From NCBI GenBank assembly GCA_965153355.1, contig OZ231126.1:39184001-39248000 (forward strand): DNA of 64,000 bases, read 5' to 3'. Position 1 is the stretch's first letter. Each line of letters starts with the position of its first letter. Positions 4,892-22,293 of the stretch are shown here, one piece after another. The DNA comes from Flaccisagitta enflata. Its lineage: Eukaryota. A program made the translations under genes and the position numbers. The notes beneath the pieces were generated by a model, which worked only from the letters and a program-made list of their open reading frames with translations, was not told where the DNA came from and did no database searches.

Positions 4892-6100
4892 TATTCATAT
4901 TACCCTTTCGACCGATATTAGAAGATGATAACGACAAGGAAAAGAAGAAATCGCCCGCGGGAGACAATTCCAGATTGCCCCAACAGTTGCATGAATGCAA
5001 AAAGATCAGCGCTTTAACAGAATCCTGTCTTGCACTGGAGAAGGCTAACAAGGAATTGAAACAAAAATACGAATTGAAAAGTCATGCAGAAAAGTTACAC
5101 AATGATAAACAGGGTGAAGAATTCAAAAATCGGCAAAAAGATGAAGGTATGTGCCGCCAATCCGACTTCGCTGTTGTTGGTTTGAAAATTGTTGGACCGA
5201 TCATATGAATGTCAGTTGTAGCCGGTCCTGCGTGGACAGATGGAAAGTCGCATGGCACCACAGCGCCTCAAATGCTGACTTTGTCTGATTCCATGAAAAA
5301 GTACGATTTTCAACATTAAGAATTCATATACGTGTAGAGCCTCCATCGTGGGGGACACTGTTGGCCCTATCTTTTGGCGTTGCATTGTACTTTTGGGACC
5401 TTGGCGCTGACGTTCTGGTGGGAAAGGAACAATATCTTCGATTTTATCAAAGACGTAAACTACAAGGTAGGAGTTTAGTAAGGACCGCGATGCTGTTAAA
5501 CCACTGTCTCAAAGGTGTCTCATTTAACTTGATTTGCCAAAGATATAAAATTCATCATTAAGACAAAAAAGCAGTGTTTTTTTTTCATGGCACAATATGT
5601 GGTTAATTTTGGAGTTAGCGAGCTAATCATCTGTGTAACAAGGTTGCAGCAAGGTTGCTATGGATAACTAACTTATCTTAAATTGAAATCCTTAATGTTA
5701 TATCATAACAATTTCACATAGCATCCTCGTGGCGAAATGAAGTTAAGAAGTGCTTCAGATATCATTTTTGCAATTTTTGTCCATCCCTTTAATCCAATAG
5801 CTAAATAGGGAATTAAAAAAATCACAAAGATAATTGTTTTCCTTTTCTCAAAATTCATTTGTCTTTCCTTTTAGAGTTGAATGAGGAAACAAATTTTCAA
5901 TGATCTTTTGTTGCTAAAGAAAAAAAATCACACAATTATTTTACAAAAATCACTCGCAAAAGCAAGACGAAAATGTTATGGGCATTTTCTGTTACACAGA
6001 TGCGCAGTCTCAACAATGCAGTTTGTAGTGTCTTGAACCAACAAATTATGTTATGCAAATTGTTTTTAAAAATGTATCAAAGAAAAAGAAAAACAGTGAG

Positions 6101-6783
6101 TGTCATCAATTGCGCCGTATTTTGTTATCCTCTTGTCCATCTACAGGAAATCTCGCAAATTTCGTTATTTCGGGTGTCGCTCCAGGACTCCTCTTCCTCA
6201 TCATCCTCCTCCTCTCACGACTCCTCGACTTCTCTCCTCCTCATCCTCGACTTCTCTCTTCCTATGGACTCTTTTCTGGAGAGAACTTTATCAGGATTCT
6301 TCGTCTTCAATCAAGAATAAATGACTCATTTAAAGTTCGACTAAAGATCACGCAAAGATCATTTTTAGATTTAAAGACTCATTGCCTCGCCATTGCTATG
6401 ATATATTGTGCATATCCTTGTTTTAGATTTCTCTTTTTCCCCCAGTGCAAGCGAGAAAGCTTCCTCTGTATATCGTTTCTATAGGACATTAATGTGGTTA
6501 TCTCGGACTTCTGCTGTCATTCCCCCCCTTCCGGAAATCATTCATCCCTGACTCCTCAGGTAGCGAGCCTTGTCAATGATGTGGTCTGGCCCACTTTTCC
6601 TTTTTGGCTCATCCTAATATCCGCCCCCCCCTCTCCCTTTTCTCATTTATCATAGAACTTACAGATCCCTTCATTCTCCAATTCGCGTATTCGTTCTAGC
6701 GGGATTCTTAAGACGGAGTTACTCAGCGATCATCAGGGCATCTAGCTAGCTAGTGAACTGTTCATACGTCACGGACTCGCACA
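6101..6783 (+). repeat. 5' LTR
   Basis: TGTCATCAATT...GGACTCGCACA; matches 17325-18007 except three substitutions seen by eye (6109, 6263, 6549). Confidence 0.97.
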
Positions 6784-6806
6784 ATCTGTAAGTTCTGACA
6801 GTTCAC

Positions 6807-6823
6807 TGGCTCCCTTCGGTGAA
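6807..6823 (+). promoter_or_regulatory. Candidate primer-binding site (imperfect tRNA-Asp-like)
   Basis: TGGCTCCCTTCGGTGAA resembles the complement of a eukaryotic tRNA-Asp 3' end (TGGCTCCCCGTCGGGGAA, from memory). It lies 23 nt downstream of the LTR, which is atypical. Confidence 0.4.
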
Positions 6824-7062
6824 AGCAAGCGAACAACACCCGCCTCCCCTTCCTCTTCACCCTTCCGGTCACGACGAAAGCTCAAGAACATTCTCCTCCT
6901 CATCTTCCTCATCACTTCTCCCTCCTCCTCATCCTCCCAATTACGGTGAAAGCTCAAGAACGTTCTCCCCTTCCTCATCTTCCATTACGTCATTCTTCCT
7001 CCTCATCATTCTAACACGGTAAAAGACAAAGAAACTCTTCCTCTTCCTCATCATCCATCACG

Positions 7063-9924
7063 ATGGCAGCAAAGGCCCGCGCAGAAAAAGCCAAAATTCT
7101 GGAAGATACTTTGAGAAAGATGCCCGACTTCAACGCCGTGATCGTGGCAGCGGACGCCGGAGCTATCGGCGGAAGCGGCGCCTCGGTAAACACGGCGATG
7201 ACGTCGGACTTCCAAACGGAAAGTGACGAGAGATCTAGAGAAGCGAAGGCAACGGCACAAACATTGGGACTGCTCGCGCGCTTCTTCGCTCTGCGACATG
7301 ACGATGTATTGAAAGAGTTCGCCGGCGTCGACGATCATGACGCACATCAGGCATTTCTCTACATTGACGACATGCGCGTCGCGCTCGTGGGAAAAATGTG
7401 GCTTTTCCACGAAATGATTACGAAAAAACTATTTCCCGCCAACACGAGAGAGGACATTCACGGACGAAAATCGGCTGGAAACCACATCAACGTCATCTTA
7501 AAAGACTTCCTCCATACGCGTCGCGCATGCCTTTCACAAGAAACCTACGACGACCCGGACTACGCGCCAAAACCGCCAACAAAAACTGACTTTGTACAAA
7601 ACTCCGCCAGAAAAGGAAGTGTATCGGACAGAGCATTGGCGCTTGCTAACTCCGCCAAGGACTTCATCGGCGAGGTCACATCGCCGAGAAAAGCGAAATC
7701 ACTCGCCAACGATAAGTTTACGGGAAAGAAAAATGATAAAAAAACGGCGTCGCCGGCGCCCCCCGGAACATCGGGGGAAACCGCGGCGCCATCGGTCAGT
7801 GACGTCAAAGTGGATAAGAAAAAACTCACGCCTAAGAATACAGAAGGTGATAAAAAAGAACAAGACCCGGCGACGGAAGACCCAAACGACGCCGACGACG
7901 CCGCCACGAAAAAGTCAGGCGCGCCTGAAGAAGACAGCGCCGAAACTGACGACGAAGCGGAACAAAAGCGCCGCCAAGCAGGAAACGCAAAAGCGGCCGG
8001 CTGGGTCGCTGATCAACAAGAACAACAAATCGCGCAACAAAACAATCAATACCATGACGCCGTCCAAAGCATCATCAACACGAGCGAGACCCACGCGATA
8101 GCAATTGAAAAAGACAATGAACATTATGAAGAAGTCCTCAAAAGAGAAAAAGAAGAAACAGAACGCGTGAAAGAAGAATTGAGAAACTTGGAAGCAATCC
8201 ACGAATTACAAAGAAAAAAACGACGAGAACAAGAAAAGAAAAAAGACGAACTAAAACAACAACAACAACAGCAGACGAACAAAGCCATACAAACGAACAA
8301 AAGACAATTAACAGCTCAAAAGAGACAAGCAGAGATAATTCAAAGCGTGGAATTGGTTCAAGCGGAAAAACAAGACGCGAGTGAAAAACTAGAAAAACTA
8401 AAGCGCCAGATTCAGAACAATTTGGACGAATTAACAGAAGAAGAAGACGAGGTACAGTTCATCGACGCCGTATTCTCGTCGACGCAAAATGACGCGCCGA
8501 CGCCAAGCGAGAGCGCCGCGACAACAACCGGAAGTGGAAAGAAAAAACGCCGATCCCCACACAAAAAGAGCCCAAATGCAGCGAGATATCCTCCTCCCAA
8601 TCTACCTCCCCTGGGCGATAACTTCCCAAAAGACGTCAGACGAGTGGGCGTCGAGTACAAACCGGCGCCAAAACCGGCGCCCAAACCGGCGCCGAAAATG
8701 CAGAACGGCGACGCCGCGGGAGGTCATGCATCCCCCGCGACTGACGCCAGACGAACAACTAATACGATTTCTTCAGCAACCGCGGCGCCGCAGCACGACT
8801 TCTCTAAATTCATTCGCACGCTAGAATTGGACACCGTCAGAAGAAGCATCGTTGGGGTCCGACCAGAGACACTATTTAAACAATACGATTCGAAAAAAAA
8901 GGGCGAATACAACTCCTTAATGAACCAGTTCGACTCGGCTTTCGGCTTCATCCCTGGAATAACCGGCAACGAAAAAGTCACGGAATTATCGGGACATTGG
9001 TTTGCTGGAGCAGCAAAAAAGGCGTTGAAGGCAGCAAGACCGACAGCGGACGATCCGAATGGAGACATCGCCTACGCAAAAGTGAGGTCACATCTAGACT
9101 CAATTTATGGCCAAGACATTGATTCCGCCGCCGACGCCCTCGCCAGACTGAAGGAAGGCGGAGTCGTCGCCAAAGACAGCCTCACTGCGCATCAAGACCT
9201 CTACCTCAACATGCTGGAGGCGGAAAGCTCGGCGTTATCAGCGTCGTCGACGGAGTTATTCGACAGAACGTCCACCCTGATCGAGATCATGTCGGCGAGA
9301 TTACCGCACCAAATGGAGAAATTCTTCGAAACGTATGAAGAAGGAGAAGGATTCCAGAAGCTTCTCGAATTCATCCATCGGCGAATTACAATCCTAAAAA
9401 CCATTCAGGTGACGACTCAAAAACCACAAACAATAAAAATTCACGCGACGGAGACAAAAGAAATTAAAAACCAACAATACGGCCCCAATACATTCGCCCA
9501 ACAAGTACAAAATTCCCCAAAGAAGGAAGAAAAGAAGGTTAGATGCACTCACTGCCAAGGCCTTCATCAGACGACAACATGCAACCGTCTTCTCATCCTA
9601 TCGCTGCCCGAAAGAATTGAAATCGCCAATAAAGCCCGAATGTGTTATCATTGCATGGAGACGACGCACAACGCTAAAGACTGCCCGGAGAAAAAAGAGG
9701 TCTCATGTTCAATGTGCAATAAAAAAGGACACATCGCCATGTTTCACGGCAGGACCTGGCTTAACCAAGCCAATGGACAGACGGACCGCTTCCGACGAGG
9801 CGGCAATGACACCAACCTAAAAATCGTCGATCCTCCGAAAACGGCGCCGCTCAACGCCGGCGCAGCGGGAAACAACGCCGCCGCGAAACAAACCGACGAG
9901 GAAGTGGAAAACCCCCCCATCTGA
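7063..9924 (+). CDS. gag: BEL/Pao Gag (953 aa)
   Basis: Long coiled-coil region and three C-terminal Zn knuckles (CTHCQGLHQTTTC, CYHCMETTHNAKDC, CSMCNKKGHIAMFH), typical of BEL/Pao. Confidence 0.93.
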   Translation: MAAKARAEKAKILEDTLRKMPDFNAVIVAADAGAIGGSGASVNTAMTSDFQTESDERSREAKATAQTLGLLARFFALRHDDVLKEFAGVDDHDAHQAFLYIDDMRVALVGKMWLFHEMITKKLFPANTREDIHGRKSAGNHINVILKDFLHTRRACLSQETYDDPDYAPKPPTKTDFVQNSARKGSVSDRALALANSAKDFIGEVTSPRKAKSLANDKFTGKKNDKKTASPAPPGTSGETAAPSVSDVKVDKKKLTPKNTEGDKKEQDPATEDPNDADDAATKKSGAPEEDSAETDDEAEQKRRQAGNAKAAGWVADQQEQQIAQQNNQYHDAVQSIINTSETHAIAIEKDNEHYEEVLKREKEETERVKEELRNLEAIHELQRKKRREQEKKKDELKQQQQQQTNKAIQTNKRQLTAQKRQAEIIQSVELVQAEKQDASEKLEKLKRQIQNNLDELTEEEDEVQFIDAVFSSTQNDAPTPSESAATTTGSGKKKRRSPHKKSPNAARYPPPNLPPLGDNFPKDVRRVGVEYKPAPKPAPKPAPKMQNGDAAGGHASPATDARRTTNTISSATAAPQHDFSKFIRTLELDTVRRSIVGVRPETLFKQYDSKKKGEYNSLMNQFDSAFGFIPGITGNEKVTELSGHWFAGAAKKALKAARPTADDPNGDIAYAKVRSHLDSIYGQDIDSAADALARLKEGGVVAKDSLTAHQDLYLNMLEAESSALSASSTELFDRTSTLIEIMSARLPHQMEKFFETYEEGEGFQKLLEFIHRRITILKTIQVTTQKPQTIKIHATETKEIKNQQYGPNTFAQQVQNSPKKEEKKVRCTHCQGLHQTTTCNRLLILSLPERIEIANKARMCYHCMETTHNAKDCPEKKEVSCSMCNKKGHIAMFHGRTWLNQANGQTDRFRRGGNDTNLKIVDPPKTAPLNAGAAGNNAAAKQTDEEVENPPI

Positions 9925-10149
9925 CTAGGAGCGACCGGCGTGGAGAATTTCATCGCGCCGGATGATGATGTGATTCGCCCGATTGTACTCGTGCGGATTC
10001 GCAACGTCGAGACCGGCGCTTCGGAAATGATTTACGCCATGTTAGATACATGTGCAGATAAGGATGTAATCTCGGAAAACATAGTAAAGCGACTCAACCT
10101 TACATACACGACAAAGACAATGACAGTACAAACAGTTGAAACAAAATGA
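9925..10149 (+). CDS. pol: Pol N-terminus: aspartic protease, in frame with gag after the TGA
   Basis: IYAMLDTCADKDVIS retropepsin-like active-site motif; same frame as gag; ends at TGA 10147 because of a 1-nt frame change. Confidence 0.85.
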   Translation, partial: LGATGVENFIAPDDDVIRPIVLVRIRNVETGASEMIYAMLDTCADKDVISENIVKRLNLTYTTKTMTVQTVETK

Positions 10150-13100
10150 CACAAAAACGCAGACTTGCAAATTTTCAATTGGAATCCATTCACTCATCGT
10201 ACAAAACTAACGTCGGACAAGCCCTAGTGGCTAAACTATGGAGCAGCGACAATGACATTCCACCAGCAAAACGTGATTTGACTAAATTCAACCATCTCGA
10301 CGGCATTAAATTCGACGACGAGGACGTGGAGGTCGGTATGATCATCAGTGTTGCGCACGCCGATACATGGACTCAAGGACCGTTTATTCGCGGCCCAAAA
10401 AAATCCCCCACCGCAATGTGGACGGAGTGGGGATACACGATCTTTGGAGTCGGCTGCCAACGCGACCATCGCGACGTTTCCGTGAACCTCCTCGCCGTTG
10501 ACGACACCAACGTTAAATACGACTACGAACGCATCTTTTATCACGACTTCCCCCAAGTGACGGCTAAAGAAATGGGAGACTCCCACGCGAATCGCAAAGC
10601 AATTCTAATGTTACAAGAAGGCATTCGATTCGACGAAGATAAACAGAAATACGTGTCGGTCCTACCGTGGTTGAAGAATAGAGAAGAAGCGGCAGCCATC
10701 CTCAACGTTCTCGATTCCGAAGGAATGGCGAAGCGCAGACTAATCTCAATGATGCCACGATTTGAACACGACCCTGTCTTTAAAGAAAGAGTCTTCTCGG
10801 AAATGGACAAATTCTTCACGAAAGGATACGCTACTCCCATCCCAAACAGCGAAATGGACCCCAGCATCCCAAGATGGTATCTTCCCATGCATCCTGTGGA
10901 TAAGCATGGGAAGATTAGAATGTGCCATGACGCCAGAGCAAACGTCAACGGAATATGCCTCAATGACCTTCTCCTCGGCGGCCCTAACATCATCAATCCG
11001 CTCGTCGATATACTTGTCAAATTTCGGGAGAACCCCATCGCCTTCATGACCGATATTTGTGGTTTTTTCCACAACGTCCTCGTCGACGAGAAGGATCGCG
11101 AAGTCTTCCGCTACTTATGGTTCGCCGACACCAAGATGGCGGAAGTGTGGAGATACCAATTTTTCTCCCACATCTTCGGCGCCGGATCGTCATCCATCGT
11201 GACCGGATTCGTCCTCCGCTATCACGCTGACAAGATTAGGCCCAAATTCCCCGACAACGTCTATCAAACGATCAGAAATAAATTTTATGTCGATGATGGC
11301 GCCGGCGGTGGACGAACAGTTGCATCTGCACTGGAACTGAAGCAGAATCTGAAGGAGGCGATGCGTCTTGGCGGTTTCCAGCTCGAAAAATGGCAGTCAA
11401 ACGCCCCCGAGCTCGTGGACGGCGAGGAAGGACACGCAATAAAAGCCATCTCAGATTCTGCCGAAGAGAACGTCACAAAGGTATTGGGCGTCTCGTGGGA
11501 CTCGAAAAACGACAACTTCGTCTTCCAATTTGACAAAGAGAAGATCAACAAAGCCGTCAATACCCCTCATCAACTTGTGTCAGTTCAAGCGTCAATATAC
11601 GACCCCCTCGGCTTCCTCTCTCCGTTCTGCCTCCTGGGCCGCAAACTGCTACAACAAGCGACTTCCGGTTCACCTGGATGGGATTCTAAACTCAAACCTG
11701 TCGTCAAGGAGGAATTCGCCGCATGGGCGAGATCCATCATCCTCCTCATCAACATCACGATCCCCAGATGCTTCACAAAGGCAGACCTCGGCGACCCGAT
11801 TGTAATCGAATGCCACATTTTCGTGGATGCAGCACCCGGAGGATTTGGCGCCGTCGTGTACAGACTGGAGAGATATTCCAACGGCGAAGTTTTCATCACC
11901 ATCGTCACATCAAGAAGCCACGTCGTCCCCTTGAATTCAGCAAAAGCATCTCACCACAATTCCATCCCGCGCCTCGAATTAGTTGCAGCAGAAAAGGGCG
12001 TGCAGCTGCACAATTTCGTCAACAGCGCCGTGGAGATCCCATTTCAAAGGACAGTGATGTGGTCAGACAGTGAAGTGGTGTTGAAACAAATCTTTGACGA
12101 AGCAAAAGTTCACGGACCTTTCATCAACAATCGCCTATCAAAAATCTACGCAGTTACAAAGCCGGACGATTGGAGATACGTCGAAGGCCCGAGGAATCCG
12201 GCTGATCACTGTTCAAGAGGAATACGCGCGGATGAGTCCGAAAAATGGGCAACATTCCATCGCGGACCCGACTTCCTCTATCAAGACGAAAGCCAATGGC
12301 CGGTCACAACTGTACCTCGACACAAAAAGCCGACGACAATGGTCCTCGCCACGCATGTAATCCCAACTCCACCGGAAGTTCCTCTAGATGGATGCGGATA
12401 CGCCAAACTGGTCGTCGACATCGACGGCTGGTATAAAAAAGTCATGAGAGTAGCATCTCTACGGAAAATCATCGCCTTCTGGAGGAAGTATCGTCGTGGT
12501 CAAGCCCAACAACCAAATCAATGGACGGCCACGTCAACTGGAAACCTGCGTATCACCATCGCAAAAAAGAAGCCCAAACAGCCCGTCAACTTAACCATCT
12601 CAATACTCGAGTTTCGAGAAGCGGAGAACCTAATTTTCGCCGCGACTCAGAAGGTCAATTTCCCAAAGGAATGGCAGAATTTGGTGGACCGCGACATCTT
12701 TCATCCCAATTCGAACAAGGAAATGACAATGAAAAACTCCCCCCTCATCACTCACAACCCCTTCGTCGACGAGTGCGGCATCATCCGCGTCGGCAGCCGA
12801 TTGGTCAACTCTACAATTAAAGAGGAAGCAAAATTCCCAATCATCCTCCCACGCAAAGATGAAAACGTGCGCGCGTATATTCGCTTCATCCATGATTATG
12901 AACTCCATGCGGGCGCAAAACACGTCCTCAACTCATCGCGTCAACGCGTTTGGATCATCCATGGGCTACAGGAAGTGACTTCCGTCATCCGAAAATGCAT
13001 CTCATGCCAAAAAGCGTTCAAAAAGCCAATGACGCAAAAAATGGCAACGCTCCCATCCTTCCGCGTGAACCCCCTTCCTCCATACGAGTATACAGGACTT

Positions 13101-14024
13101 GATCTCTTCGGCCCAATCGGCGTAAAAATCAATAAAAGAGCGTCGTGGAAAGTATGGGTGGTGGTGTTCACCTGTATGTCAACGCGATCGGTCCACGCAG
13201 AGATCGTCATGAAACAGGACGCGAGTTCTCTCATCTTGGCAATCTGCAGATTCGCAGCGCGGAACCCCAATGTCCGCCATTTCATTTCTGATCGCGGATC
13301 TAACATGACGGCAGCGGACAAAATCCTCAAACAACAACTCGCTAATTACAACGAATCTGCGGCTCAACAACTGAAAAGAAAAGGCATCCAATGGGACTTT
13401 ATTCCCACGGCTACTCCCCATTACGGCGGCGTCTGGGAGAGGGTCGTCGGACTCTTCAAAAAGCATATAAAAGCCATGGCAATCGGCGAGTCAATTCACT
13501 ACGACGTCTTCCAAACAGCCATCGTCGAAATTGAAGCGGCTTTGAACCGCCGCCCCCTAACGGCGGTACCAGCAGAATCCAACAGCTGCGAAGCCATCAC
13601 GCCTCTTTCAATTCTTAACCCGACTGCGCGATCTCACTCCGACGTCGTCGTCATTCCTGACGCATCATCAACGGAAGTCGACCGTCTCAAATCCGCGTGG
13701 ACTAATGCCCAGGCTCTAGTCAATCGTTTCTGGAACGCCTGGAAGAGAGACTACATATCGCTTCTCCATGGACGAGAAAAATGGCAACGATCCTCAAAAA
13801 ATCTCGAAATCGACGACCTCGTCCTACTGGTGGACGAAAAAGTATCGCGCGGACATTGGAAACTTGGTCGCGTGGTAAAAGTGGAAATGGACAACGGTCA
13901 TGTCAGAAAGGCATACCTGAGAACAGCCGACAAGAAAGTGGTTCTACGAGATAGGACAAAGCTCGTGCACTTGGAGATGGACCAAGAAGAGGATTCGGAC
14001 CAACAGCTCATCTCTGTGGCATGA
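10146..14024 (+). CDS. pol: BEL/Pao Pol: protease C-terminus, reverse transcriptase, RNase H, integrase
   Basis: RT motifs WYLPMHPV, LNDLLLGGP and FYVDDG; RNase H motifs HIFVDAA and SIPRLEL; integrase HHCC (H...HAG...CISC), GLDLFGP, SDRGSN and GGVWERVV; C-terminal FWNAWKRDYI...WKLGRV. Confidence 0.96.
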   Translation: MTQKRRLANFQLESIHSSYKTNVGQALVAKLWSSDNDIPPAKRDLTKFNHLDGIKFDDEDVEVGMIISVAHADTWTQGPFIRGPKKSPTAMWTEWGYTIFGVGCQRDHRDVSVNLLAVDDTNVKYDYERIFYHDFPQVTAKEMGDSHANRKAILMLQEGIRFDEDKQKYVSVLPWLKNREEAAAILNVLDSEGMAKRRLISMMPRFEHDPVFKERVFSEMDKFFTKGYATPIPNSEMDPSIPRWYLPMHPVDKHGKIRMCHDARANVNGICLNDLLLGGPNIINPLVDILVKFRENPIAFMTDICGFFHNVLVDEKDREVFRYLWFADTKMAEVWRYQFFSHIFGAGSSSIVTGFVLRYHADKIRPKFPDNVYQTIRNKFYVDDGAGGGRTVASALELKQNLKEAMRLGGFQLEKWQSNAPELVDGEEGHAIKAISDSAEENVTKVLGVSWDSKNDNFVFQFDKEKINKAVNTPHQLVSVQASIYDPLGFLSPFCLLGRKLLQQATSGSPGWDSKLKPVVKEEFAAWARSIILLINITIPRCFTKADLGDPIVIECHIFVDAAPGGFGAVVYRLERYSNGEVFITIVTSRSHVVPLNSAKASHHNSIPRLELVAAEKGVQLHNFVNSAVEIPFQRTVMWSDSEVVLKQIFDEAKVHGPFINNRLSKIYAVTKPDDWRYVEGPRNPADHCSRGIRADESEKWATFHRGPDFLYQDESQWPVTTVPRHKKPTTMVLATHVIPTPPEVPLDGCGYAKLVVDIDGWYKKVMRVASLRKIIAFWRKYRRGQAQQPNQWTATSTGNLRITIAKKKPKQPVNLTISILEFREAENLIFAATQKVNFPKEWQNLVDRDIFHPNSNKEMTMKNSPLITHNPFVDECGIIRVGSRLVNSTIKEEAKFPIILPRKDENVRAYIRFIHDYELHAGAKHVLNSSRQRVWIIHGLQEVTSVIRKCISCQKAFKKPMTQKMATLPSFRVNPLPPYEYTGLDLFGPIGVKINKRASWKVWVVVFTCMSTRSVHAEIVMKQDASSLILAICRFAARNPNVRHFISDRGSNMTAADKILKQQLANYNESAAQQLKRKGIQWDFIPTATPHYGGVWERVVGLFKKHIKAMAIGESIHYDVFQTAIVEIEAALNRRPLTAVPAESNSCEAITPLSILNPTARSHSDVVVIPDASSTEVDRLKSAWTNAQALVNRFWNAWKRDYISLLHGREKWQRSSKNLEIDDLVLLVDEKVSRGHWKLGRVVKVEMDNGHVRKAYLRTADKKVVLRDRTKLVHLEMDQEEDSDQQLISVA

Positions 14025-14498
14025 GCAGAAAAAATATCAAAAATTCCCGGGCAATCGTCTGGGACTAATTGGTATTGCTATGATCATCATATCATCTTCT
14101 TGATCCGTTATTTTCTCTCTTAATCGCTTATATTTCTTATTTTCCCCGCCTAAAAGCTAAACTCGAGAAATATCAGGATTCCCGGGCAGTTGTCTGGGGC
14201 TATTGATGTTACTACTCTCTCTATTTTTGTTTTCTCTTTATCATCGTTCATAATATTAACAATCACTCCATTCTTGCTATTACCTTTCTTCACTTCTTCA
14301 CATCTCATGACCGGCTTCTTCCTCATCCTCGACCTCTCTACATCATCATCATCTGATCTACACATGCATATGATTATTATCTTCATATGATTCCTTGCTT
14401 GCTTCTCATCTTTAAAATTCATCCCAATCACGTCGTTACATTATACATGAACTCATGCGTTCCTCCCCATTCTTAGATCAAGAGAAAGATAATACGAA

Positions 14499-16871
14499 AT
14501 GGCGAATTTAAGCGAGACGAGCGGGCGTGGAATCGCCAAGCTGGGGACGGAAGCCGGATCACCGGCGGAAACTCCCGGCGCCGGCGAAGAAACGCCCTCC
14601 TCCTCCTCATCATTCTCATCATCAACCCCCCTTCCTCCCGGCGCGAAGAAAAAGCGCCCCCACGTCGACGCCGCCGTAGATCAAAATGCGGAAGATCTCA
14701 TCGGTCCTCTCGACTACGACGACACCGACGACCAATCTCACCACCATCCCGAGTCCATGGACACATCGGAAGCTGAGGGCACGTTTAACTCCGCCCTCCT
14801 CAACCTCTCCTCATCTCTTCCTCCTCCCTCATTCCGATGCCAGTGCGTCCCCACCTCCCTCCCCGATGACGTCAACCATGAACCCAACGTGAAATATCCC
14901 GAGAACATTCACGAACAAATTTTTCAGACTAAAACCGGCACCCCTTACTGGATCAAGCCAGGCAGGGGCATCGTTAATCACGAGGACCTCACCGTCAACC
15001 CTCCCCGCCCAGCCTTCGTTTCCTTCTCCGCCGGCGTCCAAGTCCAGATTGACGACAACGAGTGTCTGGCAAAAATCCATGCGATTGAAAACGGATCGAA
15101 GAAGGAAAAGAAAAAGTTAGCCAGAGCAGCCGCCAAAGCTAGCAGTGCGGACCCCGGAACATCGGGGGAAGCTGCTGCTGCAGAGGCGACTGCCGCGGCG
15201 CATCCCCTCCTCCCATCTTCTCGCGATGCCGCTCCTCCTCCTCCTCCTCCGCCTCCTCCTCCCGCAACTCCCGATGACGGCCTTCGGCTTCCCAACACCT
15301 CACCATACCACCACTCCATCTTCATCCCCTCCTCACTTAAGATGGACAACACGGGCCGCCTCTCTCTCGCCGCCACCATTCCTCTTCTTCCTCCTCTTCC
15401 CCAACCAGAAAACAGAGCCGACGTCAAGAGAGACTTCATCGCGTCTAAGAATCTTCTCGACCACAATAAAATATTACTAGAGCAGAAAGAGGAACAATGG
15501 ATGAAACTCGGTGGCCTGGATCCCGCCCAAAAACGATTCCTCGCGGCGGGCCAGGCCCATCACGATATTTGGACGGACATTTTTACAAAATCGTTTAAAG
15601 AACGTTTCAGCCAATGTCGTCCTGCCTCTCAAATTAACCCCGCCGATCCTCCCCTCGAGAAGTCACGCTGCTTCTTTAGGAAGTATCTCGCGGGAATCAA
15701 CGAAGATCCCAACCTAATTGAAGTATTCAATCCCATCGCACCAGCGCAGACCACGCCTCCTCCTCCTCCTCCTCCTCCTCCTTCACCTCCTCGCCATCAA
15801 TCTTCCTCGGCTCGTATTCATCCTCCTCCTCCTCCTCAGCCACGCACATCATCCTCCACTCCAGCCCGTCCACGTCCACCACCACTAATGGGCCCACCAT
15901 CTCATCCTCCTCGCCAGCAACAACAGCAGTCAAAGGACGCGAAGGGCAATGCCGGATCATCGGCGGCGCCTATACGTCCCGCGACAGCCTCCACATCACC
16001 TCGTCAACATCCTCAACATCCTCCTCAACATCCTCCATCCAGCGTCGTCAACATACCACCTCCACAGAAACGCGCAAGAAGCCCCATCCGCCACCCCGAC
16101 CAAAGACGTCCATCATCACCATCTCCAGCACGACGTCAATCTCACACACCATCACTGCATCGTCCACCCACCACTTCGTCATCTTCATCATCTTCACGGC
16201 CTCGTCAATCCCCCGGCCCTTCCTCTTCTGATAGGCCAGCAGGCCCCGGCCGTCGGTCGGGGTCGTCCTCTGGCCCGTCAAGGGAGAGGGAGGAAAAGGA
16301 GAAAGAAGAGGAAAAGAAGAAAATCGACGAGGTTTTCAAGCGCCTCGCCCTTCTCGAGCTTGAAAATCAGGAATTGAAGCAGACTGTGACGTCGTTGAGA
16401 AAAGACGCGACGGCACAAAAACAACAACAAAAAAGACAAGAACAACAACAACAAAGGGACTTCAACCTGCAACAACAACAACTACAACAACATCGATCCG
16501 ACATTAACATCGTCGCTCATCGCACCCTCCAAACCACGGCGGCGGTCGGTAACGTGGGACTCGTCGTCGAATCGGCACGACGCCCTATATCGGAGATGTG
16601 GCAACGCCATCAACAACAGACGTCGCCATCTCCATCCCGCCATTCTTCCCACGATCGCCCGATGAAATTACCGGCGATAGACTTTACGTCATCTCCTTCC
16701 AACGACGAGATGGATTTCGCCTCCGAAGAGACGATTGACGATTGGGCGGCGGCCGCAAGTAATTCGCAGCCAGCCGACAACGACGACGTCTACACCCTCA
16801 GCCCGGCGCCAAAAGGAGGAACCTATCGTGGAGGCGCCACCGCTTCCGGAAGGAAATCTCGTCCTCACTAG
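14499..16871 (+). CDS. Accessory ORF3 of the BEL element (790 aa; Pro/Ser/Gln-rich with C-terminal coiled coil; function unknown)
   Basis: Uninterrupted 790-codon ORF between pol and the 3' LTR, starting GAAATGG; preceded by a polypyrimidine-TAG acceptor at 14475-14476; no signal peptide or TM segment visible. Confidence 0.85.
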   Translation: MANLSETSGRGIAKLGTEAGSPAETPGAGEETPSSSSSFSSSTPLPPGAKKKRPHVDAAVDQNAEDLIGPLDYDDTDDQSHHHPESMDTSEAEGTFNSALLNLSSSLPPPSFRCQCVPTSLPDDVNHEPNVKYPENIHEQIFQTKTGTPYWIKPGRGIVNHEDLTVNPPRPAFVSFSAGVQVQIDDNECLAKIHAIENGSKKEKKKLARAAAKASSADPGTSGEAAAAEATAAAHPLLPSSRDAAPPPPPPPPPPATPDDGLRLPNTSPYHHSIFIPSSLKMDNTGRLSLAATIPLLPPLPQPENRADVKRDFIASKNLLDHNKILLEQKEEQWMKLGGLDPAQKRFLAAGQAHHDIWTDIFTKSFKERFSQCRPASQINPADPPLEKSRCFFRKYLAGINEDPNLIEVFNPIAPAQTTPPPPPPPPPSPPRHQSSSARIHPPPPPQPRTSSSTPARPRPPPLMGPPSHPPRQQQQQSKDAKGNAGSSAAPIRPATASTSPRQHPQHPPQHPPSSVVNIPPPQKRARSPIRHPDQRRPSSPSPARRQSHTPSLHRPPTTSSSSSSSRPRQSPGPSSSDRPAGPGRRSGSSSGPSREREEKEKEEEKKKIDEVFKRLALLELENQELKQTVTSLRKDATAQKQQQKRQEQQQQRDFNLQQQQLQQHRSDINIVAHRTLQTTAAVGNVGLVVESARRPISEMWQRHQQQTSPSPSRHSSHDRPMKLPAIDFTSSPSNDEMDFASEETIDDWAAAASNSQPADNDDVYTLSPAPKGGTYRGGATASGRKSRPH

Positions 16872-17324
16872 GAGGCGATCTCATCGGTGGAGACGTATAT
16901 CGGGTCGATGTCGTCAAGATCGTGGACGGACGCCGGATCACCGGCGGAAAACCCACGGTAAATGCGGCGACAAAACCCGACGCGTAGCTCCCACCATTAT
17001 CGTCCTCCTCTTCATCTCGATCCTCCTCGCTGCGAAGCCGAATTCAACGCCGGAGCATCGGCGTGAATCTCGGCAAAAGTAACGGCAAACCCATTTTCTC
17101 ATTATTCTCGTCCTCCTCCTCATCTTCTGTACATAGTTCTTGTTTGTCTATTCTGTCGTGTTTATTCTTTTCTGTTCATCGTGTTCCCCCTCCCCCCAGT
17201 CCACATCATATTAACTTTCCTCAAAATTTTTTTTTTACTCGCTTGCACAGTAGTCATGTTTTCCTCTAGTTTTCCCCCCCCTTCGAGAAATCAACTTATC
17301 TGTCATATTGACAGATCCTGGGGC

Positions 17325-18007
17325 TGTCATCAGTTGCGCCGTATTTTGTTATCCTCTTGTCCATCTACAGGAAATCTCGCAAATTTCGTTATTTCGGGTG
17401 TCGCTCCAGGACTCCTCTTCCTCATCATCCTCCTCCTCTCACGACTCCTCGACTTCTCTCCTCCTCATCCTCGACTTCTCTCTTCCAATGGACTCTTTTC
17501 TGGAGAGAACTTTATCAGGATTCTTCGTCTTCAATCAAGAATAAATGACTCATTTAAAGTTCGACTAAAGATCACGCAAAGATCATTTTTAGATTTAAAG
17601 ACTCATTGCCTCGCCATTGCTATGATATATTGTGCATATCCTTGTTTTAGATTTCTCTTTTTCCCCCAGTGCAAGCGAGAAAGCTTCCTCTGTATATCGT
17701 TTCTATAGGACATTAATGTGGTTATCTCGGACTTCTGCTGTCATTCCCCCCCTTCCGGAAATCATTCATCCCCGACTCCTCAGGTAGCGAGCCTTGTCAA
17801 TGATGTGGTCTGGCCCACTTTTCCTTTTTGGCTCATCCTAATATCCGCCCCCCCCTCTCCCTTTTCTCATTTATCATAGAACTTACAGATCCCTTCATTC
17901 TCCAATTCGCGTATTCGTTCTAGCGGGATTCTTAAGACGGAGTTACTCAGCGATCATCAGGGCATCTAGCTAGCTAGTGAACTGTTCATACGTCACGGAC
18001 TCGCACA
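17325..18007 (+). repeat. 3' LTR
   Basis: Near-identical to 6101-6783; followed by the TSD GTGAG. Confidence 0.97.
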
Positions 18008-18142
18008 GTGAGAGCCTTGATATTAGTCCCTTTGCATTTATCAAAGGGGGCAAAATAAACGCCAACTTTTGCTACGTGAAGCACCCAAGTTGAAGAGACA
18101 GCGTCTTAAAATGCGTAGACACCTTTCTGAATGAGTTCTTCT

Positions 18143-18365
18143 TAGTTGTGGACACGCAACTCTATAAGAGGCTTTGACCGTCTGTTGTTCCGTCCGTCGG
18201 TCCGTCCATTGGTCCGTCCGTTGGTCTGTGAGCTTGAGTTGAAAAGTGGGAAAACAAGTGTTTAAAAGTTTTTTGAGTATGTGTTTGGGGAGTGGGGTAT
18301 GGATTGGGGTTGGACGCCCCTGCCCACCCGTCTGCAACGATATTGTGACCCCGCTTCACTTGTTT
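18143..18365 (+). mobile_element. Helentron/DINE-1-like non-autonomous repeat family A (representative copy)
   Basis: Recurrent TTAGTTGYGGRCACGCAACTCTATAAGAGG, then (GTCC/GTCG)n microsatellite, then GCCCCTGCCCACCCGTC...TGACCCCGC. Related copies near 3523, 22810, 26080-26240(-), 26505-26680, 34310-34480(-), 37595-37790(-), 41055, 45230-45370(-), 45788-46005, 58262-58365(-) and 63890(-). The family assignment is inferred from architecture. Confidence 0.65.
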
Positions 18366-20919: not shown

Positions 20920-21156
20920 GTAAGTTTAGGCTGTGATTAACATAGTACATTTCATTTCCTAGTTTGTTCCAATGTTCAGCCAAAAAGACGACTCTCGACG
21001 TAGTTAAAAAGTAGTAGATGAGGGGTTTGTTTGCTGCTATGTTTTTTTTCTGTTTTTTTTTTTTCTCTCTCTGCATGTCTGCTGCTCTGTTTTTTCTGCA
21101 TGTCTGTTTTTCTGCATGTCTGTTTTTCTATTTGTCTCTCTCGGTCATACTTTCTT

Positions 21157-21250
<94 letters not shown>

Positions 21251-21265
21251 TCCATTTCCTCTCAG

Positions 21266-22293
21266 AGTTGATCGCATCCCCCATTCCGCTGCGACTTACC
21301 AAAGCTAGTTCAGAGACAACAGGTGGCGTTGGAATGGTCGTGGAATCGATCGGAGCGAAGATTTTGCTGTGGGGATCTAGAAAAAAATCCCCCAACGTCA
21401 TCCGGATGTACGACGTGAATAATGAAACATGGGCGGAAAAGGAAGCGGGAGGCGAAATACATCCAGGTTACGCGAATGCCGCGAGTGTCATCGTTGGAGA
21501 AGAGATTTACATGTTCGGCGGTTTCCGAGATGAACAGAGAGGGAAACAAATAGAAACAAACTGCATCTCAAAAGTCTCGACAAAAACTGGCGAATTCCAG
21601 CGTATCAAAATCAACGGAGTTTCTCCTTTTCCCCGCTTTAAGGCAGTTGCCTGGAGTCACGAGGGTGATCTATGTTTCGGATTTGGTCACAGTGATGGGA
21701 GGCAAAAGATTTCGGGAGAGAGTTACATCGAAGAGAACAGAAGATGGACCCGAAAACCCGGCTTGGGTTTCACAAATGAAATCCTGCGATTTGACAAAAG
21801 ACAAAACTCTTTTGCCTCGCTCATCACGAATGGATCTTCGCCAAAACCCCGCATTGGATTTGGCTTTGCCAAATTGGATGGAAAAATATACGTTCACGCT
21901 GGACAAGGAGAACACTATAATGGGTTGAAAGACTTCTTTCGAATGGATTTAAAAATCAGTGAATGGACTTCACTGAAGGCCCGCGGTCTTCCATACAGCC
22001 TTCAATATCACTCCCTGTCGCTGCTCTCTTCGAAGCAATTGATGCTGGTTGGTGGAGAAAAAAGTCCTTGGGAAAAATCAAATCGAGTCATGATTTACAA
22101 TGTACAAAACGGTTCATGGACGGAAGATCAGCTTCTGCCGGACTCAGTCGGCGGGGGTGAAGGCGGTGGATTGGTGTACCACAGAGCCGCAGAAGTGAAA
22201 AACGGAAAGAATGTCACAACAATCATTTGTATGGGAGGAAAAGTGAAAGGCAACAAACTCTCCAAGCACATGCTTCATTTTGACTTACCCTGA
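21266..22293 (+). CDS. Kelch-repeat beta-propeller terminal exon
   Basis: IYMFGGF, PFPRFKAVAW, PKPRIGFGFAKLDGKIYVHAG, YHSLSLLSSKQLMLVGG and IICMGG; the CAG acceptor at 21263-21265 is phase-compatible with the EGF exon. Confidence 0.85.

Follow-up and report, generated by a model that had tools for sequence, protein, structure and literature searches.

A young BEL/Pao LTR retrotransposon carries, between pol and its 3' LTR, a third open reading frame (ORF3) that is a genuine non-env accessory gene, representing a new family inside the known class of additional ORFs of LTR retrotransposons. Analysis of the window (the whole 64-kb stretch of DNA studied here) shows that the gene is real, is conserved in diverged siblings and encodes a soluble, non-env protein. 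The best explanation, which we regard as probable, is that ORF3 is maintained by selection and would be expressed from a spliced subgenomic mRNA, act as a dimeric, disordered regulator and descend in part from repeats of the element.

A young BEL/Pao element hosts ORF3

The element spans 11.9 kb, has recently been inserted and contains the following features:

6096..6100, + strand: left copy of the 5-bp target-site duplication GTGAG, abutting the 5' LTR and repeated at 18008-18012
6101..6783, + strand: 5' LTR, TGT...ACA, 683 bp, an ungapped match to 17325-18007 with mismatches at 6109, 6263 and 6549
7063..9924, + strand: gag, 953 aa, with three zinc knuckles and a TGA end (ORF list, translation)
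9925..10149, + strand: protease-like stretch in the gag frame past the gag stop, with an aspartic-protease-like D-T-C-A motif (three-frame translation)
10146..14024, + strand: pol, 1292 aa, with BEL/Pao-type RT, RNase H and integrase (Pfam)
17325..18007, + strand: 3' LTR, identical to the 5' LTR at 680 of 683 positions (3 mismatches)
18008..18012, + strand: right copy of GTGAG, adjoining the 3' LTR

It is a BEL/Pao (Belpaoviridae-type) LTR retrotransposon, with TG...CA LTR ends, a short target-site duplication and pol domains in the order PR-RT-RH-IN. Pfam matches in pol comprise Peptidase_A17 (Pao retrotransposon peptidase; 2.8e-30, residues 473-642) and, across residues 908-1275, Integrase_H2C2 (4.7e-06), rve (5.8e-06; 26.9 bits, under the curated cut-off of 32.6) and DUF5641 (2.1e-20). 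The Peptidase_A17 and DUF5641 matches bear out a preliminary description of this DNA that had called the element BEL. Its length exceeds the 4.2-10 kb that the available text of de la Chaux and Wagner (2011; PMC3118150) gives for BEL/Pao elements, alongside LTRs of 0.2-1.2 kb. A stop and a frame change separate gag, the protease-like stretch and pol from one another, with the stop of the protease-like stretch overlapping the pol ATG (ATGA); this copy may be non-autonomous, or it needs two recoding events. Scans of the window for tRNAs and Rfam families found none of either, and hence no clue to the primer tRNA or to a spliced leader.

ORF3 is a long, intact and conserved reading frame

Three features define the reading frame and its repeats:

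14499..16871, + strand: ORF3 (P0001), 790 aa, between pol and the 3' LTR (ORF list, shuffles, HMMER relatives)
14514..14648, + strand: ORF3 codons 6-50, a diverged copy of non-coding 16890-17037 (local alignment)
16890..17037, + strand: copy of the ORF3 5' segment in the 3' untranslated region, the leading unit of a ~110-nt tandem pair

When 14025-17322 was shuffled 300 times with its dinucleotides preserved, the longest ORF had a mean length of 155 aa (sd 52, max 431), so the intact 790-aa frame that the preliminary description had placed at the env position lies far beyond shuffled lengths. An in-frame TAA two codons upstream makes the ORF3 ATG the first possible start, and this ATG has a purine at -3 and G at +4. 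The protein is rich in proline (14.2%), serine (11.8%), alanine (9.2%) and glutamine (6.6%), in agreement with its earlier portrayal as Pro/Ser/Gln low-complexity, and contains 5 Cys, 4 N-x-S/T sequons and basic K/R clusters at residues 48-53, 200-207 and 524-528, with similar clusters in relatives.

Scanning 1.84 billion proteins in full with HMMER recovered 13 unnamed relatives at 29-96% identity (11 at E<=1e-10, 4 at E<=1e-30), all of them fragments of 69-518 aa with no second full-length copy among them. Sibling conservation had been named beforehand in the preliminary description as a test that could overturn it, and the proposal came through. The start position is common to P0003 and P0011, and the stop to P0005 and P0008, while P0004 and P0014 stop at most one or two residues away. 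P0002 is 96% identical over residues 88-252, P0008 aligns at 27% over 391 columns (E 4e-27), and the P0004 cluster, one sibling lineage, lies on 8 separate contigs. By sequence comparison, ORF3 is thus an additional ORF (aORF) in the usual sense, an internal-region frame besides gag and pol that is conserved in siblings, these siblings being known as protein fragments alone. The source label 'merc' was attached to 2 of the 10 relatives looked up (P0002 and P0006) and to cluster member P0022; we read it as the metatranscriptome-derived MERC catalogue, which the available text of 10.1101/386110 describes as assembled from 775 marine eukaryotic metatranscriptomes. Such fragments could stem from full-length genomic RNA and so do not demonstrate a subgenomic message.

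Other searches were negative. Word-index protein searches with the whole of ORF3, with residues 95-425 and, at shorter lengths, with residues 262-420 gave 0 matches and also missed relatives found by HMMER; of the 177 and 167 pattern matches obtained in metagenome contigs with alignments A3 and A4, tblastn confirmed none; and ESM Atlas searches with residues 255-425 and 60-200 gave no usable match. The divergent 10-residue tail of P0003, considered as an alternative exon, is encoded nowhere in the 64-kb window.

Part of ORF3 resembles untranslated repeats of the element

Codons 6-50 align with 16890-17037 at a local score of 41, against a mean of 12.1 in 200 shuffles (sd 1.8, max 20), and the repeat core common to the ORF3 5' segment and the 3' untranslated copy is identical at 26 of 27 positions. 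The low-complexity N-terminal segment may therefore have a common origin with the 3' untranslated repeats of the element. Descent from gag was considered and set aside: the best BLASTP E-value for ORF3 as a diverged gag duplicate was 0.34, and the 15/29 match coincides with a DNA hairpin motif common to both. A small GC hairpin motif, CCGGAWCAYCGG, is dispersed five to six times along the plus-strand RNA of the element.

These repeats bear on whether ORF3 is a captured cellular gene, or its relatives ordinary host genes, in which case its function would be that of a host protein and not specific to retrotransposons. A diverged direct repeat of ~140 nt brackets the ORF3 body, an arrangement that an insertion into a repeat array might produce; the 13 relatives are represented by protein sequence only, and an orthologue series from related species would give the same ladder from 96% to 29% identity. 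Yet neither the 1.84 billion representatives nor the word-index searches held a named or full-length homologue, and Pfam, PDB and Atlas offered no lead. In composition, ORF3 resembles the element, whose GC content is 0.50-0.52, and differs from the flanks, at 0.36-0.42, and the P0004 lineage sits on its 8 separate contigs. Moreover, the N-terminal segment that matches the untranslated repeat is kept as protein in P0011 (55%), which indicates that the gene has long been part of this sequence context. We consider capture improbable. The preliminary description had named a clear match to a known env or a captured host gene as an outcome that would count against it; none emerged in Pfam, PDB or viral-fold searches.

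ORF3 comprises four modules joined by low-complexity linkers

Four conserved modules are parted by linkers that cannot be aligned:

14700..15098, + strand: N module, ~residues 68-200, kept in three lineages (P0002 96%, P0011 55%, P0009 45%)
15258..15770, + strand: middle module, residues 254-424, a short beta hairpin plus a helical hairpin
16323..16526, + strand: coiled coil, residues 609-676 of helix 594-683 (AlphaFold2 pLDDT 96-98)
16704..16868, + strand: conserved C-terminal tail, residues 736-790 (alignment of 6 sequences)

The modules align across relatives at 27-55% identity; the linkers do not. Residues W334, G338, F347, L348 and L386 of the middle module are invariant in 8 sequences, and D736, W749, A759, Y765, L767, P769, P771, G779 and G784 of the tail are invariant in 6, with the stop co-located. 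From the N terminus, an acidic, Cys-pair-bearing N module is followed by a basic helix, a poly-Pro stretch, the beta-hairpin and helical-hairpin domain, a long Pro/Ser/Arg-rich disordered linker, the coiled coil (a parallel dimer in the model) and the short tail. The Arg/Ser-rich character of the linker is absent from P0008.

AlphaFold2 was confident only at residues 300-410 (the helical hairpin) and along the 90-residue helix 594-683, and gave no fold for the N module (pLDDT <50) despite its conservation. The two ordered islands and the C-terminal coiled coil noted in the preliminary description are present in the sequence; structure prediction upheld the second island as a confident hairpin and failed on the first. 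The coil self-pairs in models as a parallel, in-register dimer (score 0.41, against 0.02 for the best of 3 controls), with three runs agreeing in at least 96% of contacts and a partner pLDDT of at least 80. In calibration, 21 of 30 microbial proteins solved as pairs of one chain attained this dimer mark, against 0 of 23 solved as single chains; of 29 eukaryotic proteins solved as pairs, 17 attained it, though only 1 of the 7 without an older solved relative did so.

ORF3 is not an envelope gene

ORF3 has neither the signal peptide nor the membrane anchor of an env protein, as the preliminary description had said. Its highest 19-residue Kyte-Doolittle mean is only 0.88, hence the lack of a transmembrane segment, and its N terminus is polar, not hydrophobic; both absences are judged by this hydropathy scan only. 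Across 21 relatives and cluster members, the hydropathy maximum does not exceed 1.29. ORF3 matched no Pfam family, and 1 of 15 family members had a weak match (Cep57_CLD, 0.0025). The best E-value against PDB sequence profiles was 0.32. Foldseek searches of PDB and BFVD returned 0 matches at E<=1e-3, the N module being without a usable model, and the best VIA Z score (6.9, to designed helical bundles) falls short of the noise level that the tool sets for helical models. The VIA list has an HIV gp41 chain only at rank 50 (Z 5.6), amid generic helical hairpins. Pfam, PDB profiles, Foldseek and VIA thus yielded no known env, viral or host family.

We regard it as very improbable that ORF3 is a decayed env, drifting without function after loss of its signal peptide and anchor, or a chance ORF in low-complexity DNA. 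Decay would account for the env position and for a long heptad-repeat helix such as fusion subunits have, and other frames in the region are open for 150-190 codons, as happens in C-rich low-complexity DNA. However, at least five lineages, all devoid of a membrane segment, retain the start and stop positions and the four modules at 27-55% identity, and the length is far outside that of shuffled ORFs. No fold or sequence likeness to fusion proteins rises above noise, and the coil is modelled as a dimer, the sole oligomer modelled.

Several short motifs were also considered in ORF3 and rejected by eye, as their residues depart from the consensus: PPxY and P(T/S)AP late domains, YxxL, LIR, a kinesin W-acidic motif and a WASP-type acidic-Trp tail without a WH2 motif.

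Candidate splice sites place ORF3 on a putative subgenomic mRNA

Gypsy env is expressed from an mRNA in which the leader has been spliced to a site immediately upstream of the env frame. The corresponding signals, a leader donor and an acceptor just upstream of the ORF, are present in this element as candidate sites:

6788..6793, + strand: GTAAGT, the candidate leader splice donor, 5 nt past the final 5' LTR base, 6783
14025..14498, + strand: pol-ORF3 spacer, containing direct repeats spaced ~135 nt apart and 8 ATGs, every ATG lying before the acceptor
14190..14474, + strand: AG-free pyrimidine-rich tract of 285 nt that ends at the candidate acceptor (AG-run scan)
14451..14476, + strand: branch-like ACTCAT (14451-14456), pyrimidine tract and TAG acceptor (motif positions)

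The donor is the only GTAAGT, and the only GTRAGT, on the plus strand of the element, where ~1.9 GTAAGT are expected, with 0.045 in the 279-nt leader (6784-7062). It sits where a primer-binding site is expected, which counts against the splice model. The AG-free tract is the longest in the element and the second longest in the window, the longer one being a (CTTT)n microsatellite; the probability of no AG over its 285 nt is 0.003 from its own composition and 0.0005 from spacer shuffles. It runs into TCCTCCCCATTCTTAG (14461-14476), whose AG (14475-14476) lies 22 nt before the ORF3 ATG, and the pyrimidine fraction in the 15 nt before this AG (0.87) is the highest of the 9 spacer AGs. No ATG occurs in the leader or between the acceptor and the ORF3 start. 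In the mRNA that these sites suggest, the 5' exon would end at 6787 and the 3' exon start at 14477, so that the ORF3 ATG would be the first after the junction.

Reads on 5900-18200 numbered 305, of which 302 lay only partly on this stretch (RNA raw-read run and contig run). The RNA reads were piled on CAA/CAG repeats near 8250 and 16490, where apparent joints are repeat artefacts, and because they are confined to these repeats they are uninformative on expression or splicing. The acceptor tract, ACTCAT motif, 22-nt gap and donor reported in the preliminary description are all in place. Its proposal of a spliced subgenomic RNA gained from the unique donor, the AG-free tract and the absence of an intervening ATG, but no junction read was obtained; the leader-to-14477 splice is strengthened by these signals but unproven.

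The observations accommodate an internal promoter, or trans-splicing at this acceptor, just as readily as the cis-splice. ORF3 would then be functional and expressed either from a promoter in the spacer or, should the host use one, by addition of a spliced leader, an alternative that we consider unlikely overall, though it carries more weight than capture or decay. The ~135-nt-spaced repeat and a 23-nt motif shared by spacer and LTR (21/23 identical, 14317-14339 versus 6235-6257) could mark a promoter, but the match is marginal (it scores 18, the best of 100 shuffles 17), and an internal start would have to fall no more than 44 nt from the ORF3 ATG for the transcript to exclude the 8 ATGs that precede it in the spacer. 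The long AG-free tract and an acceptor 22 nt before the ATG suit trans- and cis-splicing alike; the scan of the window detected neither an SL RNA nor any other Rfam family, and without cis-splicing the unique leader donor would be a coincidence. An accessory gene of a plant element is reported to have a promoter of its own (Gomez-Orte 2013, as cited in the available text of PMC7264820).

Comparison with known additional ORFs and a possible role

Read as a selectively maintained accessory gene, ORF3 has counterparts in other groups. According to the available text of Rodriguez, Kenefick and Arkhipova (2017; PMC5408684), LTR retrotransposons of bdelloid rotifers carry non-env ORF3s, and LTR retrotransposon ORF3s are typically separate units translated from spliced messages. 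As here, the rotifer frames are sense third ORFs after pol in young elements with near-identical LTRs, and some have coiled-coil motifs only, a coiled coil being present in our ORF3 too. The named rotifer proteins in that text are DEDDy exonuclease-like, GDSL esterase-like or membrane proteins in gypsy-like clades; unlike them, the protein described here is mostly disordered, has no detectable family, belongs to a BEL/Pao element and comes from a different source, a marine one.

Plant aORFs, as covered in the available text of Vicient and Casacuberta (2020; PMC7264820), are family-specific, lie between pol and the 3' LTR and lack database similarity, all of which applies to ORF3, and their degree of conservation is similar to that of the remaining proteins of the elements. 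The same text records spliced sense transcripts for some elements (Bagy2) and a nuclear localisation for Grande GENE23, and accessory roles like those of retroviral regulators are proposed for aORFs. The plant elements are Ty3/gypsy or Ty1/copia, in contrast to BEL/Pao here; the nuclear example is antisense with its own promoter, sense aORFs often have transmembrane segments, and no sequence relation to ORF3 was found. The term 'undescribed' in the preliminary description accordingly holds for the family; the kind, non-env ORF3s, is already in print (PMC5408684, PMC7264820, as far as these texts were available). For BEL/Pao, the available part of PMC3118150 records only occasional env genes.

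The env genes of errantiviruses and of the few BEL/Pao elements that bear env share with ORF3 the position after pol and the proposed leader-to-acceptor splice; unlike these glycoproteins, ORF3 has no signal peptide, anchor, Cys or glycosylation richness or, in the profile searches and the folds that could be modelled, viral fusion similarity, and its product would have no part in membrane fusion. Retroviral accessory regulators, for example Rev-type RNA export adaptors, are made from spliced env-region mRNAs. Such adaptors have basic clusters and a Leu-rich helical oligomerisation segment, as does ORF3, for whose product a nuclear role may be proposed; ORF3 is five to seven times larger, with no sequence or fold relation found. 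Regulators from spliced mRNAs are also mentioned in the available text of PMC7264820. If the element splices, it needs a route to export unspliced genomic RNA. Towards a putative Rev-type role, the basic clusters and the dispersed hairpin motif are leads, beside the modelled self-pairing of the coil.

We infer from the architecture that the protein would be a dimeric, largely disordered adaptor or regulator that serves the cycle of the element itself. A nuclear location is probable, as predicted from the short basic K/R clusters that recur in relatives. The roles suggested in the preliminary description (a condensate scaffold, an anti-silencing factor or a poly-Pro trafficking adaptor) drew no support from any test made. 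A far-reaching version, in which ORF3 founds a new BEL/Pao accessory class of nuclear, dimeric, disordered regulators that are made from a spliced RNA, recognise the CCGGAWCAYCGG hairpin, control RNA export, packaging or silencing and arose partly de novo from 3' untranslated repeats, would be a long shot.

Implications for BEL/Pao elements

The value of the finding is moderate, as genes of this kind are already known and the function is a guess. The 6787/14477 junction is a concrete, testable splice proposal, and untranslated repeats of the element may have given rise to part of ORF3. BEL/Pao is the least studied group of LTR retrotransposons; a conserved, transcribed, soluble third gene, if true, would mean that these elements also evolve accessory proteins, like complex retroviruses and some plant and rotifer elements.

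Structure of the element and of its third ORF

The third open reading frame (ORF3) lies at the env position of a long terminal repeat (LTR) retrotransposon, between pol and the 3′ LTR:

6101-18007, + strand, LTR retrotransposon (LTR pair plus target duplication)
6101-6783 and 17325-18007, + strand, 5′ LTR and 3′ LTR (ungapped alignment, 683 bp, 3 mismatches)
10146-14024, + strand, pol (1292 aa)
14499-16871, + strand, ORF3 (790 aa; in-frame stop two codons 5′ of the ATG)

The LTRs start with TGT, finish with ACA and are bordered on both sides by a 5-bp duplication, GTGAG. The pol product matched Pfam Peptidase_A17 ‘Pao retrotransposon peptidase’ (2.8e-30), DUF5641 (2.1e-20), Integrase_H2C2 and rve, which supports the BEL/Pao assignment made in the preliminary description. 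GC content is 0.485-0.52 in the element and 0.36-0.42 in the flanks, which are microsatellite-rich host DNA with very many di- and tetranucleotide repeats. A Kelch-repeat host ORF (PF24681, 1.2e-28) follows 3 kb 3′ of the element in the same orientation (21022-22293).

Other parts of the element are also unusual. The gag gene terminates at a TGA (9922-10149 region), and 74 further codons in the gag frame carry a protease-like D-T-C-A motif; a second TGA closing this stretch overlaps the pol ATG (ATGA), and the remainder of the protease region seems to be in the pol frame. Either Gag-Pol is made via two recoding events (read-through, then frame change or re-initiation), or this is a young copy broken at two points. 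Sequence after the 5′ LTR, where the primer-binding site is expected (6784-6830), has no TGG at its start and contains GTAAGT; the first TGG-led stretch lies ~28 nt beyond the expected position, and no tRNA gene for primer comparison was found in the window. The LTR has six ATGs and a single AATAAA, at 6316, within its first third.

ORF3 was present intact, and every motif named for it in the preliminary description was found at its position. When the pol-to-LTR interval was shuffled 300 times with dinucleotides preserved, the longest ORF had a mean length of 155 aa (sd 52, maximum 431), and other frames in the ORF3 region are open for 150-190 codons. At 790 aa, ORF3 exceeds every shuffle, so the C-rich, low-complexity character of the DNA does not account for it. 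Its product is 14% Pro and 12% Ser, with 5 Cys, 4 N-x-S/T sites and a highest 19-residue hydropathy mean of 0.88.

Relatives and conservation

Word-index protein searches with ORF3 gave no matches. HMMER, run in full against 1.84 billion cluster representatives, returned 13 proteins at E ≤ 1e-3 (11 at ≤1e-10 and 4 at ≤1e-30; P0002-P0014), all fragments of 69-518 aa. Among ten relatives looked up, eight were labelled ENA, two merc, and none was named; one relative’s cluster comprises 8 members from 8 contigs, each 646-1349 bp. Identity to ORF3 is 96% for P0002 (residues 88-252) and P0003 (residues 1-76), 55-45% for P0004, P0011, P0006/P0022 (P0022 being a member of a relative’s cluster) and P0009, and 29-40% for P0007, P0008, P0010, P0012, P0013 and P0014. 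Many fragments end within poly-Pro or poly-Gln runs, suggesting short-read assembly breakage. No DNA surrounding the relatives was recovered from the metagenome contig collection in pattern scans.

The Met-Ala start of ORF3 is common to P0003 and P0011 and its end residue to P0005 and P0008, and P0004 and P0014 end within 1-2 residues of it. Conservation is concentrated in four blocks, namely the beginning of the coil plus these three:

Residues ~68-200, N module
Residues 254-424, middle module (W334, G338, F347, L348 and L386 invariant in 8 sequences)
C-terminal tail (nine invariant residues in 6 sequences)

Linkers between blocks retain length and disorder but not sequence (P0008 versus ORF3). 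Shared ends, conserved blocks and changed linkers together form the pattern expected of a protein under selection. The ORF is thus conserved among siblings, whose absence of conservation would have counted against the original proposal, and ORF3 is likely to be a real, maintained, non-env accessory gene.

Predicted structure

AlphaFold2, run on a 15-row alignment, gave ORF3 a mean pLDDT of 54, with high confidence confined to residues 300-410, which hold helices 306-336 and 342-372 and a further two short helices, and to one uninterrupted helix, 594-683 (pLDDT 96-98); values for the N module were below 50. Modelled alone, the middle module kept its topology, with a beta hairpin in front. Foldseek against the PDB and viral models found nothing at E ≤ 1e-3, and the top hits of an exhaustive VIA search (Z 6.9) were designed helical bundles, within the tool’s stated noise for helical models. 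PDB sequence profiles did not match ORF3, the ESM Atlas did not match its segments, and Pfam gave nothing across the 15 family members beyond a weak hit in one of them, to Cep57_CLD (0.0025). Modelling residues 590-694 in two copies gave a parallel dimer, paired in register via 609-676, with at least 96% of contacts agreeing between runs and pLDDT of at least 80. The dimer score was 0.41 versus 0.02 for the best of three controls, on a scale whose dimer mark is attained in microbes by 21/30 solved pairs and 0/23 single chains and is weaker in eukaryotes (17/29, and 1/7 without an older solved relative). These models suggest that ORF3 probably dimerises through its coil.

Candidate splice signals and transcription

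The preliminary description proposed that ORF3 is expressed by joining a GTAAGT donor in the leader to an acceptor 22 nt 5′ of the ORF3 ATG. The 11.9-kb element has a single + strand GTAAGT (or GTRAGT), located at 6788 within the 279-nt leader; ~1.9 would be expected across the element and 0.045 across the leader. The proposed acceptor AG (14475-14476) closes an AG-free stretch of 285 nt, the longest in the element and exceeded in the window by just one run, a (CTTT)n microsatellite. AG-exclusion zones are established features 5′ of 3′ splice sites. The stretch’s own composition predicts 5.4 AGs (P(0) = 0.003), and 0.05% of spacer shuffles produced an AG-free run of that length. Pyrimidines make up 87% of the 15 nt directly 5′ of the acceptor AG, a larger share than for any other of the nine spacer AGs, and all 8 spacer ATGs lie 5′ of this acceptor, with none between it and the ORF3 ATG. 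Donor uniqueness, the AG-free stretch, pyrimidine fraction and ATG placement together raise the odds for 14476/14477, a candidate 3′ splice site with an even or slightly better chance of being real. The same signals fit cis-splicing and trans-splicing alike, and ORF3 might instead be expressed by trans-splicing at 14477 or from an internal promoter; translation from an RNA spliced at 14477 is marginally favoured. A 23-nt motif is common to the LTR (6235-6257) and the pol-ORF3 spacer (14317-14339; 21/23 identical); its score of 18 versus a shuffle maximum of 17 is marginal, and it may be a promoter or binding element common to both places.

We take merc to stand for the Marine Eukaryotic Reference Catalog, a protein-level assembly from 775 marine eukaryotic metatranscriptomes (10.1101/386110). 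If so, P0002, P0006 and P0022 derive from RNA and ORF3 is transcribed, either in this element or in one almost identical to it; genomic and subgenomic RNA both fit. A look-up of sequencing runs containing this stretch listed none, and reads of one raw-read RNA run on the element were confined to CAA/CAG repeats.

Repeats and origin

ORF3 codons 6-50 (14514-14648) are a diverged copy of an untranslated, tandemly repeated stretch directly 3′ of ORF3 (16890-17037), with a local score of 41 versus 12.1 in 200 shuffles (sd 1.8, maximum 20) and a core identical at 26/27 positions. This N-terminal segment is kept as protein in P0011. A CCTCCTC-type motif, which codes Pro/Ser runs, occurs 23 times across the leader, spacer, ORF3 and 3′ region. 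These matches point to common ancestry of the element’s untranslated repeats and ORF3, or at any rate the low-complexity N-terminal part of it. Tandem or near-tandem units are found in all three untranslated regions (72 nt at 6845-6982, 135 nt at 14032-14202 and ~110 nt at 16924-17126). The ORF3 body is flanked by a ~140-nt diverged direct repeat, one copy coding and the other untranslated, and such bracketing could let reverse transcriptase skip ORF3 to give ORF3-less derivatives.

A 17-nt motif, CCGGAWCAYCGGSGGAA, lies at 7763, 14554, 15154, 15952 and 16933, with a variant at 17047. Allowing ≤2 mismatches it has 5 matches, all on the + strand and within the element, versus 0.03 expected for a pattern derived from these same copies. 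All copies fold into small GC hairpins (z −0.9 to −4.7), and the base preceding CCGG co-varies with S (C..G in 2 copies, G..C in 4). This hairpin may be a cis-acting RNA element.

Possible function and known counterparts

K/R clusters at 48-53, 200-207 and 524-528, comparable ones in P0007, P0008 and P0010, and the modular disordered build are the grounds for a tentative and rather unlikely reading of ORF3 as a nuclear adaptor or regulator of the element’s RNA or particle traffic. The earlier suggestions of a poly-Pro adaptor, condensate scaffold or anti-silencing factor are possible roles. A limited full-text literature search found no description of an ORF3-like protein in BEL/Pao, and the available part of a BEL/Pao survey mentions merely that few such elements have env (PMC3118150). 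Non-env third ORFs are described from rotifer LTR elements (PMC5408684) and plant elements (PMC7264820), where most, like ORF3, are without database similarity and such ORFs are regarded as accessory factors. ORF3 is therefore a new family within an already described kind, the non-env third ORF.
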